UHGV virus genome: UHGV-0078433
Direction: 5' to 3' (one strand)
Origin: a virus
DNA: 37,911 bases
Shown: positions 50 to 5,358 of the stretch, one piece after another
Numbering within the stretch: the first letter of the stretch is position 1
How the letters are laid out: each line of letters begins with the position of its first letter
Translations under genes and position numbers: made by a program
The notes under the pieces: generated by a model
Told to the model about the DNA's origin: nothing
The model's input: only the letters and a program-made list of their open reading frames with translations
Database searches by the model: none

Positions 50-445
50 TCAGTATCTCGATAAACGCAGAGAAATGATGCAGTGGTGGGCGGATTGGCT
101 TGATGAAAAAGTGGCGTAATGCCACCCATCACCCACCCTGTCATCCTGTAGCGCGCTGTTGATGAAGAACGTCACGCGCCCCAGCACCTCAACTTCCTCC
201 TCCTCCTCCCCTTCGATCGCTTCACCATCATCAGTGATTAATGTCCTACCCATTACCCGGGCAAACTGCGTTCTGCCGCCAGATAAAATCAGCAGAACCT
301 GATTCTGTACCAGCCTGGTGCACGGCTCGATAACGGCAAAGCCGGATGAGGTTTCCAGGATGCGAGTGTCGACGCCAACACCGCAGATTCGCTCCGGAGT
401 TAACCGCTGCTCTACATAGTCGCCAGCCGGCGAAGGGAAGCCCAT
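50..445 (-). CDS. UmuD'-like S24-fold protein, begins at the UmuD autocleavage position, catalytic Ser/Lys not conserved
   Basis: N-terminus MGFPSPAGDYVEQR matches the UmuD segment just after the Cys24-Gly25 cleavage site; GGAGG-type RBS 8 nt upstream; positions aligning to SGDSM and TVKKL read SSGFAV and a Gly/Glu-rich stretch. Confidence 0.6.
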   Translation of the reverse strand: MGFPSPAGDYVEQRLTPERICGVGVDTRILETSSGFAVIEPCTRLVQNQVLLILSGGRTQFARVMGRTLITDDGEAIEGEEEEEVEVLGRVTFFINSALQDDRVGDGWHYATFSSSQSAHHCIISLRLSRY

Positions 446-693
446 TACAGAACCCTCCCCATGTTACGTAGCATCCAGAGACGGTTTTCACTGTGGTCAG
501 GCGTCTTGTCGACAAAGAACTCTTGATAGCGCTGGATCCACTCGTTGGCGTCGACCTGGCTGAAATGCCAGTTTCTCGTGCGCAACTCACGGATGAAGTC
601 GTTCGTATGAAGGCACTGATAACCCTTTGGGTTTTGCTGTACTGCAGCGACAAATGCGCTGTGAATGTCTGATTGGCGGGGTATGATCTGCAC
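445..693 (-). CDS. Hypothetical 82-aa protein, stop overlaps start of UmuD'-like gene (TAATG)
   Basis: Open frame of 82 codons; only possible start is GTG at 693 abutting AGGAG with zero spacer, in-frame TAA immediately upstream; no recognisable family. Confidence 0.45.
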   Translation of the reverse strand: MQIIPRQSDIHSAFVAAVQQNPKGYQCLHTNDFIRELRTRNWHFSQVDANEWIQRYQEFFVDKTPDHSENRLWMLRNMGRVL

Positions 694-776: not shown

Positions 777-2606
777 TTACACCTGACCAAGGTCCTCTAC
801 GCTTTCCTGATCATTCAGCAAGGTAATGGCAACAGCAATTGAGGAGAGGATAGTTTTGATTTCTATGGTGTTCATCCCTTCCTTTTCCCGGACGTACTCG
901 CATAATTTATCGACGTCAAATATCTCTCTGATGTTTGTATATTCGGCGGCTCTTTCAAGCAAGTGCACGATTTCTTCTCGCTGACCTTCGACAAATTGAG
1001 CCTGCCATGCTTGCACAGACCTTGGCGTGAATTTAACCCCGCTATCATAAGGAGCATCTGCGATATCAAGGCCAAATCTACCCTGCAATGATTTATCCCA
1101 TGTCGCATTCAAAAATGGCAGAGAAACTAATTCAGGAGCCAGCTTTGCCATGACGCTGTAGTGGAACAATTCTTTGTTCCTGGCCTCCGGACTGAGCTTG
1201 AATACCAAACGCGCAACTTTAGGAGAGAGAAGTGGCATCAGTTTAATTCTGCCTGTGACGTTCTGAGCAAGAGGGCCGTTCCAATTGGAAAGACGGTTTT
1301 CTACGAAGAACTTCTCAGGTAAAACATCAAACCTTACAGATTTAATATTCTCCTCAAGCCAGCCGTAGAACCAACCTATTTGAGCGTTTTTATACAAACT
1401 GGAGAGAATGTTTAATGGATCCATCTTCTGATGGTAGTTTATGAACTTAGAAAGAATTGCATCTTTATTGTCCATAAAGGACAGGTTTTTAAACTGCTTG
1501 GCGTGTCCGCCGGGTCCGCGATATAGCTCGCCGCCAAAGCCAGTCATATCGGACGTTATATTTTTGATGGTGCGTTCAGCTGTTGCTCCATCCCATGGGC
1601 AAATATAACTTTCCATTCTGTAGGAATGCCAGTTAAGTTTTTCCCATGAATTAGCAAAATCCTGAGCTTTAACTTGTGGAGCCTTAACGTTAGCGACGTG
1701 CTTAACGCCGATTTTGCTGGCTATGTTCTGAGCGCAACTTATCTCCGGGCTTCCTTCCGGTCCGTTCGTAAATGTGGTAATCCTGTCTTTGAATCCTGCA
1801 CCCAATGCCAGTGCAAGGACAAGACGAGAGTCCTTACCACCGGTCAGTGATAAGCGGAGTTCACCGGGAATGTTTTCACTCGCAGCCTTAAAGTTTTTCA
1901 CCAATTCATCTACGATCAAATCCCAGTCATCACCTGAAAGGTCATTTAGATATTCAGCATCCTCACTTGAAGGCCAGATCTGATTCTTAAATTTATTGAT
2001 ATTTACTGTTGTTGAACCGATTGGTGACTTTAAATAGCTACCTGCCGTGATTGTATTTACACCTTCAAATGGTGTTTCATTTCCAAATATATTGGCATGC
2101 CCAATCAACCAGCTCAATGAGGAAAGGTTATATTTACCATTGCCTCGTAATTCATGTAATGCAGATGCTCTGTTACTTACGCAGGTCACACCATCAATTA
2201 TTGTGTAATAAATAGGACAGGTGCCTGAGAAATCGCCGAAAGCAAGGAGGCCATTCTTGGAGGTTATTGAAACGAAGTTGTAAGACCCGGAAATATTGTC
2301 AAACATGTATTCCGCATCGTTTTTTGTGGAGGCATCAAGTGCGGCGTCAGACACGTCATAGCTATCCCCCATCCTTAAAACAGGGCCATTTATCAGGCAT
2401 ACGCCGCTTTGCTTAGATGTTATTCTTTTTGATATTTCGCCTTCCGCATTGCCACATGCTGTATATGCCCAAGCTCCGCTACCAGATATTTTATTAGCCA
2501 CCTCTACTGGCTTAAATGTTAAGTTCCTTTTTAGGGCCTGCTGCGCTGTCTCGTATAATTTCTTAACAGACTCGCTTTTTCCATTTAAAACAATAAAGTT
2601 TATCAT
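777..2606 (-). CDS. Asparagine synthetase (AsnB)-family PP-loop protein with GATase-like N-domain lacking the N-terminal Cys nucleophile
   Basis: 609-aa ORF; PP-loop LSLTGGKDS; AsnB-like motifs GDFSGTCPIYYT and AGSYL; residue 2 is Ile not Cys; visibly AT-rich versus neighbours. Confidence 0.8.
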   Translation of the reverse strand: MINFIVLNGKSESVKKLYETAQQALKRNLTFKPVEVANKISGSGAWAYTACGNAEGEISKRITSKQSGVCLINGPVLRMGDSYDVSDAALDASTKNDAEYMFDNISGSYNFVSITSKNGLLAFGDFSGTCPIYYTIIDGVTCVSNRASALHELRGNGKYNLSSLSWLIGHANIFGNETPFEGVNTITAGSYLKSPIGSTTVNINKFKNQIWPSSEDAEYLNDLSGDDWDLIVDELVKNFKAASENIPGELRLSLTGGKDSRLVLALALGAGFKDRITTFTNGPEGSPEISCAQNIASKIGVKHVANVKAPQVKAQDFANSWEKLNWHSYRMESYICPWDGATAERTIKNITSDMTGFGGELYRGPGGHAKQFKNLSFMDNKDAILSKFINYHQKMDPLNILSSLYKNAQIGWFYGWLEENIKSVRFDVLPEKFFVENRLSNWNGPLAQNVTGRIKLMPLLSPKVARLVFKLSPEARNKELFHYSVMAKLAPELVSLPFLNATWDKSLQGRFGLDIADAPYDSGVKFTPRSVQAWQAQFVEGQREEIVHLLERAAEYTNIREIFDVDKLCEYVREKEGMNTIEIKTILSSIAVAITLLNDQESVEDLGQV

Positions 2607-2871: not shown

Positions 2872-5358
2872 CTACTTTGCTTCGAGATTTCCCACTCGTT
2901 CAGCCAGAGCCTCAAACTGCGATAGCAGCCTTTGATGATTACGACGATGAAGGGCAGCCTCCATCACTAATGCCTCCTCATATCGAATGCCATAGCGTGA
3001 TCCCGCTTCAACCGCCGGAACTACTACATCGCCAGTCTCTTCATCAAGAACTTCTGGTGAGCTTTCCCACTTGTCATAACAGAAGAAAGCAAACTGGTGA
3101 GGATCAAGTCCATGACGGATAAACGCTTCTTGCGCACGCTGGGCAATAATGCCGACATGCCAACGGGCTCCATCATCTCCCTTTGCCTCTATACGGTCAA
3201 TGAACTGGAACTGCACGAAATCTACTTCCGCCCAGGCATCCAGAATATCATCTGCGTACGGCGCTTCCATTAACCGTGAATCTGTCGTTTGGACGGGTTC
3301 GAGAGAACCACGAGCCAGCATCACTGGACGCGATTTTTGCCTTTCATCGGAGGTGACAGTATACGCAGCCTGAGTGAATCCGCCCGCAAATGGACTTGAA
3401 CTGGTACCAACAGTTCTGGTGTTAGCGGCGCTGGGCTGGATATTGCCGTTTACGCTCATGTTGGTGTTGATATTTACGACAGCAGAAGCAAAGCGTGCAA
3501 CTTCAGTACCGGCCGACGCTTCAGTTGATGAGACGTAGAGGCCGACAGCATTTTTACTAAGGACTGCGGTTCGGGCAAATCCACTAGAATCGCGGATCTC
3601 TCCGAGCCCAACTTGATAATCGTCAGACTGCGGGCCGGTAACGTTAGTGATGCAATGGAATACGCCACCCATTTGGTTAAACGGATCTGTCACGGATTCA
3701 AGATGAAGGCCATCTATAATGATCTTCCCGGTATTGCTACCCCCTGACTCTATGCCTACAGGGCAATTCCTTAACGTCACGTTGGTTAGTTTTTGATATT
3801 TCCTGTTCAGGCGTAAGGCAACATTGGTGTCTCTACACACAATATTGGTTACAGAACACGCCTCTGCATCACCAAACTGCCGATCACTGGCTCCGGAGGC
3901 TGTTGTTGTCTGGTATCCGGTTATTGCGTTAGCGCACTGAATATTTGATCCGTTGCAATATCGCTCCTCAATCCACACTGAAGCCCCAATTCTTCCGCCA
4001 TCATATCCGAGACATGATATATTGCTGTAATTGACGAATGGGGATTTAATATGGAGCCCGATGATGTCTGAATCAGTGGATTTAAATCGGTTCTGAATGA
4101 CTGTGATGTTTGTAACATCACTCCATACACCGCCAGTTCCACGACTGACGGTATCGCCAATGATCCCCTGCTTGATACGGACGCCAGCGCCGGGCGCTCC
4201 GACGTTACCAAAGTCTGACACATAAACGTTCGATACCTTCGGCGCCAATGACATTACGTCAACGCCTGCCCAAGGGTGGGCTGGCTCGTCAAGTTGCCCG
4301 AAGTTGAAAACGAAGATGTTATTTAATTGAAACGCGCGACTGACAGACCCATTATCCTTAATGTCGATACCATCTGCGCCGGTGTTTTCAGACCAGAATC
4401 CGTCGATGCTGCAGCCCTTATACCCGCCATTCTGAAGACCCAAGGCATAATGAGAGCAGTTCTTTACCTTGAGGCCGCGAATTGTAAGCCCCTCGATTCC
4501 TGCTCCGACAATGCCTTCAGTTTGCCGGGCGTAAGGAGTACCATTCCATAAGTAATTCCCGTCGATACAAATATCTTGAAGGCCGACGCCCCTTACTTTT
4601 GTGGTGCCGTTTTCGAGCGGTGGCTTTGACCACTGTATTACCCCATATGCAGCATCTGTGTTGTAAGCTCTTATAGTAGTAGAGTTCCATCCCTGCCCAC
4701 GGAGAATAATGTTGTCAAATGGGATGCGCAAAGCAGCAACGTTTAACGTTGCGTTGGCAGAGCTAAATTCAGTCGGATCCTGATGCACCATGTATAAGGG
4801 CCGCGGGAATACAATCGTGCCCCCGCCGGCTGCACTGAGTTCCTGCGCCTTCTGCATTATCAGTCTTGCGTTCTGCAGGGCGACAACCTGGCTAACAACC
4901 CCAGGGATTACGCCAAATGAATCAGCGGTTATTTCAATGCCACCAATTAATGACGAGCCGGTACTGGAGCTTAATCTCTGGACAAAAGAAAACGGATCAA
5001 CCAGGGAGCAATTTTCAAAATAGTATTGCTGAGCCCCATAAGCATCGTAAACAGCCATGCTGTAATCACTTTCAGTGACTATGGTTACAACCTGGCCATT
5101 ATATACTGGGTAACCTGAGGAATTAATTTTAACTGGCTGGCTGATCTGCACCAGGGAGCCATTTTCATTCCTGAAATAAACCGCTACCCTATTGGCTGGA
5201 TTTGTTGGATCCGTGTCAGGAACACCAACATAAATATTACCGTTTGCGATAGCTTTAAAGCTTCTCGGCGTAATAAATGGGATGTACGGCATTGTTACTT
5301 GCTGGTTGGCAATGATATCTGGCATTTGCTGTTCTCCAGGTGCAGAAAAGCCGCACAA
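2872..5358 (-). CDS. Tailspike: P22 gp9-like head-binding N-domain, beta-helix depolymerase-like centre, C-terminal self-cleaving chaperone (S74-type) domain
   Basis: N-terminal ~110 aa resemble P22 tailspike N-terminus (recall); repetitive beta-helix-like middle; SDERQK motif followed by ~150-aa chaperone-like tail. Confidence 0.85.
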   Translation of the reverse strand: MCGFSAPGEQQMPDIIANQQVTMPYIPFITPRSFKAIANGNIYVGVPDTDPTNPANRVAVYFRNENGSLVQISQPVKINSSGYPVYNGQVVTIVTESDYSMAVYDAYGAQQYYFENCSLVDPFSFVQRLSSSTGSSLIGGIEITADSFGVIPGVVSQVVALQNARLIMQKAQELSAAGGGTIVFPRPLYMVHQDPTEFSSANATLNVAALRIPFDNIILRGQGWNSTTIRAYNTDAAYGVIQWSKPPLENGTTKVRGVGLQDICIDGNYLWNGTPYARQTEGIVGAGIEGLTIRGLKVKNCSHYALGLQNGGYKGCSIDGFWSENTGADGIDIKDNGSVSRAFQLNNIFVFNFGQLDEPAHPWAGVDVMSLAPKVSNVYVSDFGNVGAPGAGVRIKQGIIGDTVSRGTGGVWSDVTNITVIQNRFKSTDSDIIGLHIKSPFVNYSNISCLGYDGGRIGASVWIEERYCNGSNIQCANAITGYQTTTASGASDRQFGDAEACSVTNIVCRDTNVALRLNRKYQKLTNVTLRNCPVGIESGGSNTGKIIIDGLHLESVTDPFNQMGGVFHCITNVTGPQSDDYQVGLGEIRDSSGFARTAVLSKNAVGLYVSSTEASAGTEVARFASAVVNINTNMSVNGNIQPSAANTRTVGTSSSPFAGGFTQAAYTVTSDERQKSRPVMLARGSLEPVQTTDSRLMEAPYADDILDAWAEVDFVQFQFIDRIEAKGDDGARWHVGIIAQRAQEAFIRHGLDPHQFAFFCYDKWESSPEVLDEETGDVVVPAVEAGSRYGIRYEEALVMEAALHRRNHQRLLSQFEALAERVGNLEAK

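Follow-up and report, generated by a model that had tools for sequence, protein, structure and literature searches.

Small partners in the LexA/UmuD superfamily

ImpC is a DinI-like protein of about 80 residues. Its gene is the small first cistron of the LexA-regulated impCAB operon, where it lies immediately upstream of a umuD homolog and is co-induced in the SOS response (PMC12211044). Besides ImpC, the operon provides a polymerase (ImpB) and a cleavable ImpA. A second precedent for a small partner of this superfamily comes from Acinetobacter, in which the small protein DdrR is paired with a UmuD-family protein, UmuDAb, that it binds and modulates (PMC11332147). The ddrR gene is divergently transcribed, and its partner UmuDAb is a cleavable repressor of full length that brings an HTH of its own. 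A third is gp7, a small protein of phage GIL01 that binds host LexA (PMC11332147), i.e. a target from the same superfamily.

The phages P1 and N15 carry a UmuD' homolog in ready-made, pre-cleaved form. Their HumD is a phage UmuD' that begins at the cleavage-site glycine and is encoded behind a LexA box; a note in the P1 record states that HumD "functionally complements E. coli UmuD'". In P1, humD directly follows the LexA box and no small ORF intervenes. A ready-made UmuD' on a mobile element can bypass the RecA-dependent delay that restrains the error-prone Pol V, and this affects the speed at which lysogens mutate under DNA-damaging antibiotics.

The locus described here lies in the window, which is the whole stretch of 37,911 nucleotides of viral DNA that was analysed (UHGV virus genome UHGV-0078433). 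On its minus strand, a small ORF is followed by a UmuD'-like gene. The cassette is laid out like an SOS mutagenesis operon that includes a small accessory gene; the accessory protein, however, has a different fold, and the UmuD' comes pre-cleaved. The explanation that best accounts for the observations, to which we attach a probability of about 0.5, is that the small ORF encodes a winged-helix partner or accessory of phage UmuD' within a LexA-repressed two-gene cassette. The strongest points of the case as a whole are the near-universal coupling to UmuD' and the confident fold; the weakest are the function, which is reached indirectly, and the copy in the window, which looks mildly degenerate.

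The predicted SOS promoter

A predicted, near-consensus LexA operator (TACTGTATATAAAAACAGTA) occupies positions 720 to 701 of the minus strand, and the small ORF is located, as the original prediction had it, between this SOS box and the UmuD'-like gene. The locus was compared with related ones from phage records, GTDB genomes and IMG/VR contigs, 123 loci in all, and in 121 of them a CTG-N10-CAG box is found within about 30 nt of the start. Since a strict sigma-70 consensus scan flagged no promoter in the region, the promoter is deduced from conservation in 110 unique loci anchored on the LexA box. In this alignment a -35 hexamer TTGATC (743 to 738) stands out by its high information content and a -10 hexamer TACTGT (720 to 715) by its conserved position, the two being separated by a spacer of 17 nt. 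TACTGT is at the same time the left half of the LexA box, so that the operator overlaps the -10 element, an arrangement which is common in SOS promoters. An operator consensus overlapping the promoter in this way designates the small ORF and the UmuD'-like gene as a predicted LexA-regulated (SOS) operon.

The conserved promoter leads one to expect a leader of about 25 nt equipped with a Shine-Dalgarno (SD) sequence, which speaks against the earlier suggestion that translation might be leaderless. Folding of the region did not exceed that of shuffled sequences (z -0.4 and +0.2) and Rfam yielded no match; a leader RNA element and coupling mediated by RNA structure were both rejected.

Coding capacity and family of the small ORF

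The small ORF (684 to 445, minus strand) comprises 79 codons plus a stop and its frame is open down to the TAA at 447 to 445; an alternative form of 82 codons (693 to 445) would start at GTG 693. The original prediction had proposed frame conservation and the substitution pattern as checks, and both speak for a protein-coding gene. The 79-codon ORF is present in 118 of the 123 loci. Entropy at the three codon positions amounts to 38.1, 32.9 and 94.6, respectively, and pairwise dN/dS values against the window are about 0.07-0.25, with synonymous sites being saturated. The product is thus under purifying selection. A frame interrupted next to a conserved UmuD'-like gene, which the original prediction had named as the refuting observation, was encountered in only one or two of the 123 loci (L099 and the L029 fusion).

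It had also been considered that the region might be a non-coding leader. A fortuitous open frame, or a leader, non-coding or regulatory, that serves the UmuD'-like gene, would fit the atypical start and the lack of any Pfam or NCBIfam match, but family-wide conservation of the frame, dN/dS well below 1, a confident fold and the unremarkable RNA folding refute this idea. The small ORF is almost certainly a real coding gene and the first cistron of an SOS operon.

Initially, the protein could not be assigned to a family. This is superseded by the sensitive profile search that had been recommended, which yields a full-length match to phrog_3893 in the PHROGs HMM collection (E 5.3e-42; residues 5-82 against profile positions 2-79 of 79). 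The family, catalogued in PHROGs and RefSeq, is nevertheless itself an uncharacterised phage protein family. Nothing was found in Pfam at E<=1, and no match in NCBIfam. A tblastn search detected the ORF in 47 phage records (among them HK225, mEp390 and HK140 as well as Klebsiella, Enterobacter, Cronobacter, Erwinia and Pantoea phages), a protein search returned 107 clusters, nearly all of exactly 79 aa, and 1.84 billion representatives, searched exhaustively with a profile, contained 186 relatives only, almost all of them about 79 aa long. These phrog_3893 relatives are confined to Enterobacterales; since DdrR is found in Acinetobacter only (PMC11332147), homology between the two is unlikely and they are set apart by taxonomic range. 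Public names of the family include "DNA polymerase V" and "PH domain-containing protein", both of which are misnomers. A role as an anti-phage defence component was dropped, as PADLOC returned no match.

The start codon

The window locus agrees with the rest of the family in ORF length, LexA box and the presence of the UmuD'-like gene downstream; the exception is its start codon. In HK225, Midgardsormr38, phiES15, AH07 and Kp4882-3 the ORF begins with ATG-CCN-CGN (M-P-R), a few bases past a GAGG-type SD. The window reads ATA-CCC-CGC at the aligned position, the ATA (684 to 682) being codon 4 when counted from GTG 693. Over the 123 loci, the aligned codon is ATG in 116, ATA in four, ATC in one and GTG in one; for the one remaining locus the start position was extrapolated and holds no start codon. 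The four ATA loci are the window, an identical twin in IMG/VR, E. coli N9 and, independently, a Lelliottia locus.

The original prediction regarded GTG 693 as the only possible start, fused to AGGAG with an in-frame TAA upstream. The description of the sequence is accurate: the AGGAG (697 to 693) shares its last G with the GTG (693 to 691), and the TAA is found at 702 to 700 of the minus strand. However, it is precisely this shared base that deprives GTG 693 of a usable SD spacing. The same GTG sits in a leader (AAGGAGTGCAGATC) common to many ATG-bearing relatives, and is more likely to be part of the SD and its spacer. From the AGGAG to ATA 684, on the other hand, the distance is 8 nt, which is the modal SD spacing of the family. 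The conserved start position is thus very probably 684, and the claim that GTG is the sole candidate has to be abandoned. The alternative proposal of a non-canonical initiator was correct in spirit, a near-cognate start being present, but the codon concerned is ATA 684 and not GTG 693.

How the ATA arose can be read from the nearest ATG-bearing relative, PK12, in which an identical SD and spacer (AAAAGGAGTGCAGATC) precede the start codon; the ATA therefore goes back to a single G-to-A change. In the lineage of the window, the family ATG has accordingly mutated to ATA. Among 5,426 complete E. coli genomes, the ATA leader occurs in three (N9, 1008S19 and Nord122). In reporter assays, initiation at AUA, AUC or AUU reaches 1-2 % of that at AUG (bioRxiv 10.1101/063800). 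Translation in this lineage would have to make do with weak initiation at the near-cognate ATA or at the poorly placed GTG, and the balance tips slightly towards ATA 684 being actually used in this prophage.

Annotation reflects these ambiguities. PGAP begins WP_094314010.1 and WP_094319200.1 at the ATA codon and thereby calls a protein of 79 aa in N9 and 1008S19, and leaves the gene out in Nord122. Prodigal-type callers take the GTG, which generates the 82-aa forms in IMG, ENA and Logan. Public records are consequently split three ways, between 79 aa from ATA, 82 aa from GTG and no call at all.

The UmuD'-like gene

The second gene (445 to 50, minus strand; homologous core 445 to 134) encodes a protein that starts with MGFPSPAGDYVEQR at the junction with the small ORF. 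In a single-sequence search, it matches UmuD only at GFPSPAxDYVEQR (UmuD 25-43). A profile made from 107 diverse downstream proteins aligns with residues 25-137 of E. coli UmuD at an hhalign probability of 98.7 % (E 2.7e-16), the phage protein starting at the equivalent of the cleavage-site glycine, Gly25. The Ser60/Lys97 dyad is absent: an 11-residue gap removes the Ser60 loop (SGDSMIDGGIS) and Lys97 is aligned to a residue other than lysine. Such a loss would be compatible with a pre-cleaved UmuD' that never needs to cleave itself. On the strength of these alignments, the downstream gene is a true UmuD' homolog, pre-cleaved and catalytically dead.

The protein belongs to phrog_3469 (E 1.8e-43) and has a native length of 105 aa. 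It is of the same kind as HumD but represents a shorter form without the Ser60 loop. The NCBIfam HumD equivalog gives 29.2 bits against a cutoff of 120 and covers only residues 1-21; phrog_3469 is a separate short subfamily. A longer HumD-type gene follows the small ORF in some of the relatives, among them L013, L020 and L051. An AlphaFold2 model of the UmuD'-like protein (pLDDT 40, from a shallow alignment) was set aside.

The copy in the window has lost 1 nt between positions 133 and 132, which puts the native stop codon out of frame. The UmuD'-like protein thereby loses the last 2 of its 105 residues and gains 28 codons that run antisense to intS; PGAP flags the corresponding copies of N9 and 1008S19 as pseudogenes, but in Nord122, which has the ATA start, the UmuD'-like gene is intact at 105 aa. 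The ATA start and the frameshifted end of UmuD' together mean that the copy in the window may be decaying. In its full form, this explanation holds that the cassette is a remnant in which the small ORF, deprived of its ATG, has fallen silent and the UmuD' is frameshifted, so that neither protein is made in useful amounts. The rarity of the ATA lineage among complete E. coli genomes and the missing PGAP call in Nord122 would be in line with such a process, but the frame of the small ORF is still fully open and the frameshift costs UmuD' a mere two residues of its own. Moreover, the non-ATG codons at the family position are all near-cognate and have at least four origins (ATA twice, ATC and GTG once each), though this pattern has a probability of about 0.2 of arising by chance. 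Divergence within the ATA lineage is too low to gauge relaxed selection. On balance, we consider decay in this prophage rather unlikely, though a serious contender.

The junction between the two genes

The TAA of the small ORF (447 to 445) overlaps the ATG of the UmuD'-like gene (445 to 443) in the sequence TAATG (447 to 443, minus strand), as the original prediction described. In 111 of the 123 loci the small ORF meets the following gene in a TAATG or TGATG. The SD of the downstream gene, GGGGAGGG (460 to 453, minus strand), is embedded in the codons for the conserved C-terminal residues NMGRV, and an SD of at least 4 nt at a spacing of 8-9 nt precedes the downstream start in 97 of the 107 unique loci scored. 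In a distant subfamily, NGG codons supply a GGAGG in place of the NMGRV codons. Since the UmuD'-like gene has an SD of its own, its translation need not depend wholly on the small ORF. Combined with the weak start of the first cistron in the window, this suggests that the small protein is under-produced relative to UmuD'.

Programmed frameshifting as a means of joining the two ORFs was rejected, because a TAA closes the UmuD' frame 6 codons before the ATG and the intervening stretch has no slippery heptamer. The "fusions" present in databases are artefacts of assembly or frameshifts.

Fold of the small protein

AlphaFold2 models the small protein with high confidence (pLDDT 94.2, pTM 0.83; 62 homologs). 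The modelled topology is alpha1-beta1-alpha2-alpha3-beta2-beta3, with helices at residues 4-14, 27-36 and 43-53 and strands at 23-26, 57-59 and 69-72; in this model the protein is a minimal single-domain winged helix. Its structural neighbours include the DNA-binding Sso10a, PefI, PadR, MarR and Fur. Identity to generic winged-helix proteins (Sso10a, PefI, PadR, and the winged-helix modules of PCI and cullin proteins) is 4-16 %, without a match at the level of a family. In almost every family member, helix 3 (DANxWIxRYQ) and the wing (FVDKTPDxSENR) carry a net negative charge, which would favour the binding of protein over that of DNA. With its usual DNA-contact surfaces being acidic, the family is closer to protein-binding winged-helix modules than to repressors.

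These considerations bear on the possibility that the small protein is induced in the SOS response to bind DNA, either as a lone transcription regulator or as one half of a two-piece, non-cleavable LexA-like repressor formed with the UmuD'-like dimer. The winged helix is most often a DNA-binding fold, many of the structural neighbours do bind DNA, and the gene boundary falls exactly at the glycine of the cleavage site. LexA itself combines a winged HTH with a UmuD'-like domain, and its N-terminal domain presumably arranges helices and strands in a similar order to the small protein, which we count in favour of DNA binding. Despite this, hhalign gives a probability of 0.05 % for the small protein against LexA residues 1-84, and no LexA emerged from a profile search of PDB sequences. 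Nor is a winged helix fused to an S24/UmuD'-like domain in any of the 186 representatives, the few long ones crossing frameshifted junk before MGFPSP. Lacking a sequence signal and natural fusions, the origin of the cassette from a split LexA was set aside and kept as a low-probability reading only. Taken as a whole, a DNA-binding role seems quite unlikely to us.

The original prediction judged by eye that the protein does not look like DinI. The comparison bears this out: hhalign against the DinI of HK225 returns a probability of 0.15 % and, as mentioned, no Pfam family is matched, so that kinship with DinI or ImpC was rejected. Two further candidates can be dismissed. A PH domain, after which PGAP names WP_094314010.1 in E. 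coli N9 (the same protein is a "hypothetical protein" in 1008S19), finds no support, given a three-helix winged-helix model and the absence of a Pfam match. The 190-aa divergent P1 gene lxr shows no similarity to the small ORF and is not its homolog.

What does the small protein do?

The likeness between the small ORF and ImpC is one of position, an analogy that implies no family membership. ImpC is DinI-like, whereas the window's protein has no DinI similarity and a predicted winged-helix fold; impCAB possesses a polymerase gene and a cleavable ImpA, whereas the window cassette is devoid of a polymerase gene and has a UmuD' that is pre-cleaved and catalytically dead. With gp7 of GIL01, which belongs to another host clade and genetic context, the likeness is likewise an analogy only. 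Taking ImpC-ImpA and DdrR-UmuDAb as the closest analogues, we infer that the small protein might best be seen as a stoichiometric partner of phage UmuD'. That it functions as a partner at all is plausible, if just short of an even bet. Partnership is supported by an almost obligatory overlap of its stop codon with the start of a verified UmuD' homolog, and a link to Pol V beyond UmuD' is indicated by a locus of Pantoea anthophila, in which the stop of the small ORF overlaps the start of umuC, itself cut off after 77 codons. Arguments to the contrary are that the small ORF exists without a UmuD'-like gene in HK225 and two other loci, that HumD of P1 works without a small ORF, that the fold is one typically associated with DNA binding, and that the copies on plasmids are relics (see below).

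Following DNA damage, LexA would be cleaved and a single mRNA would supply the two proteins in a fixed ratio. On the partner reading, the winged-helix protein would assist phage UmuD', or pair with it, through protein-protein contact, and might make UmuD' more stable or tune its engagement with host UmuC, RecA or UmuD. The outcome would be a modulation of Pol V-dependent translesion synthesis. A conserved partner almost always translationally linked to UmuD' would then offer a new handle on Pol V control in enterobacterial prophages.

A bolder version makes the small protein a third component of the control of Pol V by mobile elements. It would bind the pre-cleaved phage UmuD' dimer and might shield it from heterodimerisation with host UmuD and removal by ClpXP, or load it onto host UmuC; alternatively, the two might form a non-cleavable two-piece LexA-like DNA-binding complex that rewires the late SOS response. 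Its ratio to UmuD' would be adjusted through the variant start codons (ATG, GTG, ATA, ATC). We hold this to be unlikely; if true, prophages would bring along a regulator of damage-induced mutagenesis that has so far escaped notice.

Small LexA-controlled proteins at the ends of prophages are a known class, and the small protein could also be aimed at the RecA filament, LexA, host UmuD or a phage repressor, in the manner of DinI, PsiB, GIL01 gp7 or the LexA-controlled antirepressors Tum and Gifsy Ant. The linkage to UmuD' would then reflect no more than a shared SOS-moron cassette. For such a target one can invoke the precedent of gp7 (PMC11332147), the persistence of the ORF without UmuD' in HK225, and the presence of dinI, transcribed divergently from a shared operator region, in 15 of 122 loci. 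However, simple co-regulation would not call for a linkage as tight as the stop/start overlap of 111 of the 123 loci, DinI similarity is absent, and a match in BFVD to a protein annotated as AntA/AntB is not significant (E 0.055). A target of this sort is, in our estimation, distinctly improbable.

Prophage ends and plasmid relics

Temperate phages of Enterobacteriaceae carry the cassette at their integrase end, and relic copies occur on IncX3 plasmids. In prophages, it is found at the extreme end, adjoining the integrase, and many IMG/VR contigs stop 317-335 nt past the stop codon of the small ORF.

A homolog with 38 % identity is present on 1,032 plasmids, including IncX3 plasmids carrying blaNDM, where it lies upstream of a "umuD"/S24 gene. 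The family thus gives an identity to the unnamed ORF beside the "umuD" landmark of IncX3 blaNDM plasmids. Three plasmid copies were inspected, two of them on IncX3. In all three, the break through operator and promoter falls at a common junction beside ISKox3, where sequence from the ISKox3 side joins the LexA box in mid-site and the right half alone remains. For two of the three, the ISKox3 transposase gene is annotated upstream, and in two the umuD-like gene is truncated at IS26 (delta-umuD in PMC3630922). Being relics with a cut operator, the inspected copies provide no evidence of maintained function, and their use as a sign of it was withdrawn.

In the locus of Pantoea anthophila, a tyrosine-recombinase-like ORF is located just downstream of the cut-off umuC.

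Sequence constraints at the junction and 3' end

The Shine-Dalgarno sequence of the UmuD'-like gene (50..445, minus strand) lies within the codons of the small ORF that precedes it (window 453..460; the equivalent position in all loci). The small protein has a conserved C-terminal motif, NMGRV (NGG in the distant subfamily), and the codons for these residues spell the GGAGG. Since these codons double as the downstream Shine-Dalgarno sequence, the apparent conservation of the protein's C-terminus may in part reflect a constraint at the nucleotide level.

At its other end, the UmuD'-like ORF differs from that of PK12, the nearest relative with an ATG-started small ORF, by a 1-nt deletion (window 129..140, minus strand). 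Sequence comparison places one missing base in the window (GGGTGG-GTGA versus GGGTGGTGTGA in PK12), two codons ahead of the native stop, and the ORF thereby gains 28 codons that are antisense to the 3' end of intS. The extra base of PK12 is also present in the E. coli genome Nord122, where the stop of the UmuD'-like gene is intact and yet the small ORF has an ATA start. PGAP flags the UmuD'-like copies of N9 and 1008S19, two further E. coli genomes with the ATA leader, as pseudogenes.

Annotation of the small ORF

Public records treat the small ORF (445..684; RefSeq WP_094314010.1 and WP_094319200.1) inconsistently. In N9 the RefSeq entry carries the name "PH domain-containing protein", in 1008S19 the same entry is a "hypothetical protein", and in Nord122 the gene is left uncalled. 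Several phage, plasmid and UniRef records call its relatives "DNA polymerase V"; the modelled fold of the product is a predicted winged helix.

Variant neighbours and plasmid copies

In Pantoea anthophila LMG 2558 (related locus L042, 2501..2970), it is umuC, not a umuD'-like gene, whose start overlaps the small-ORF family member (GTGATG). This umuC ends prematurely after 77 codons, and a tyrosine-recombinase-like ORF begins about 70 nt downstream. A divergent DinI shares the LexA-box region with the small ORF in 15 of 122 loci, among them HK225 (L001, 2165..2803), L004 and L132. The UmuD'-like gene has been lost from HK225, where the small ORF runs on to 99 aa.

Three plasmids, IncX3 blaNDM (L125), IncFIB (L126) and IncFIB/IncHI1B/IncY (L127), carry the same module, with a junction region at about 2960..3000. 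Their upstream DNA is identical through ...GGGAAGACCC and then enters the LexA box mid-site, so that the right half-site alone is left and the native -35/-10 is absent (ISKox3 side). The umuD-like gene is truncated at IS26 in L125 and L127 (118 aa versus 127 aa in L126). These cassette copies look like relics.

A possible cargo gene next to the SOS cassette

Between the SOS cassette and a tailspike-like gene (2872..5358) lies a 609-aa asparagine-synthase-like ORF (777..2606, minus strand), whose profile matches are all sub-threshold (TIGR01536, E = 6e-10; PF00733, E = 5e-4). A tblastn search found no counterpart among 50,697 phage records. Because the same slot is filled by an acyltransferase in the related prophage of 1008S19 and by a GT2 glycosyltransferase in that of PK12, the ORF is possibly cargo that modifies surface polysaccharides.
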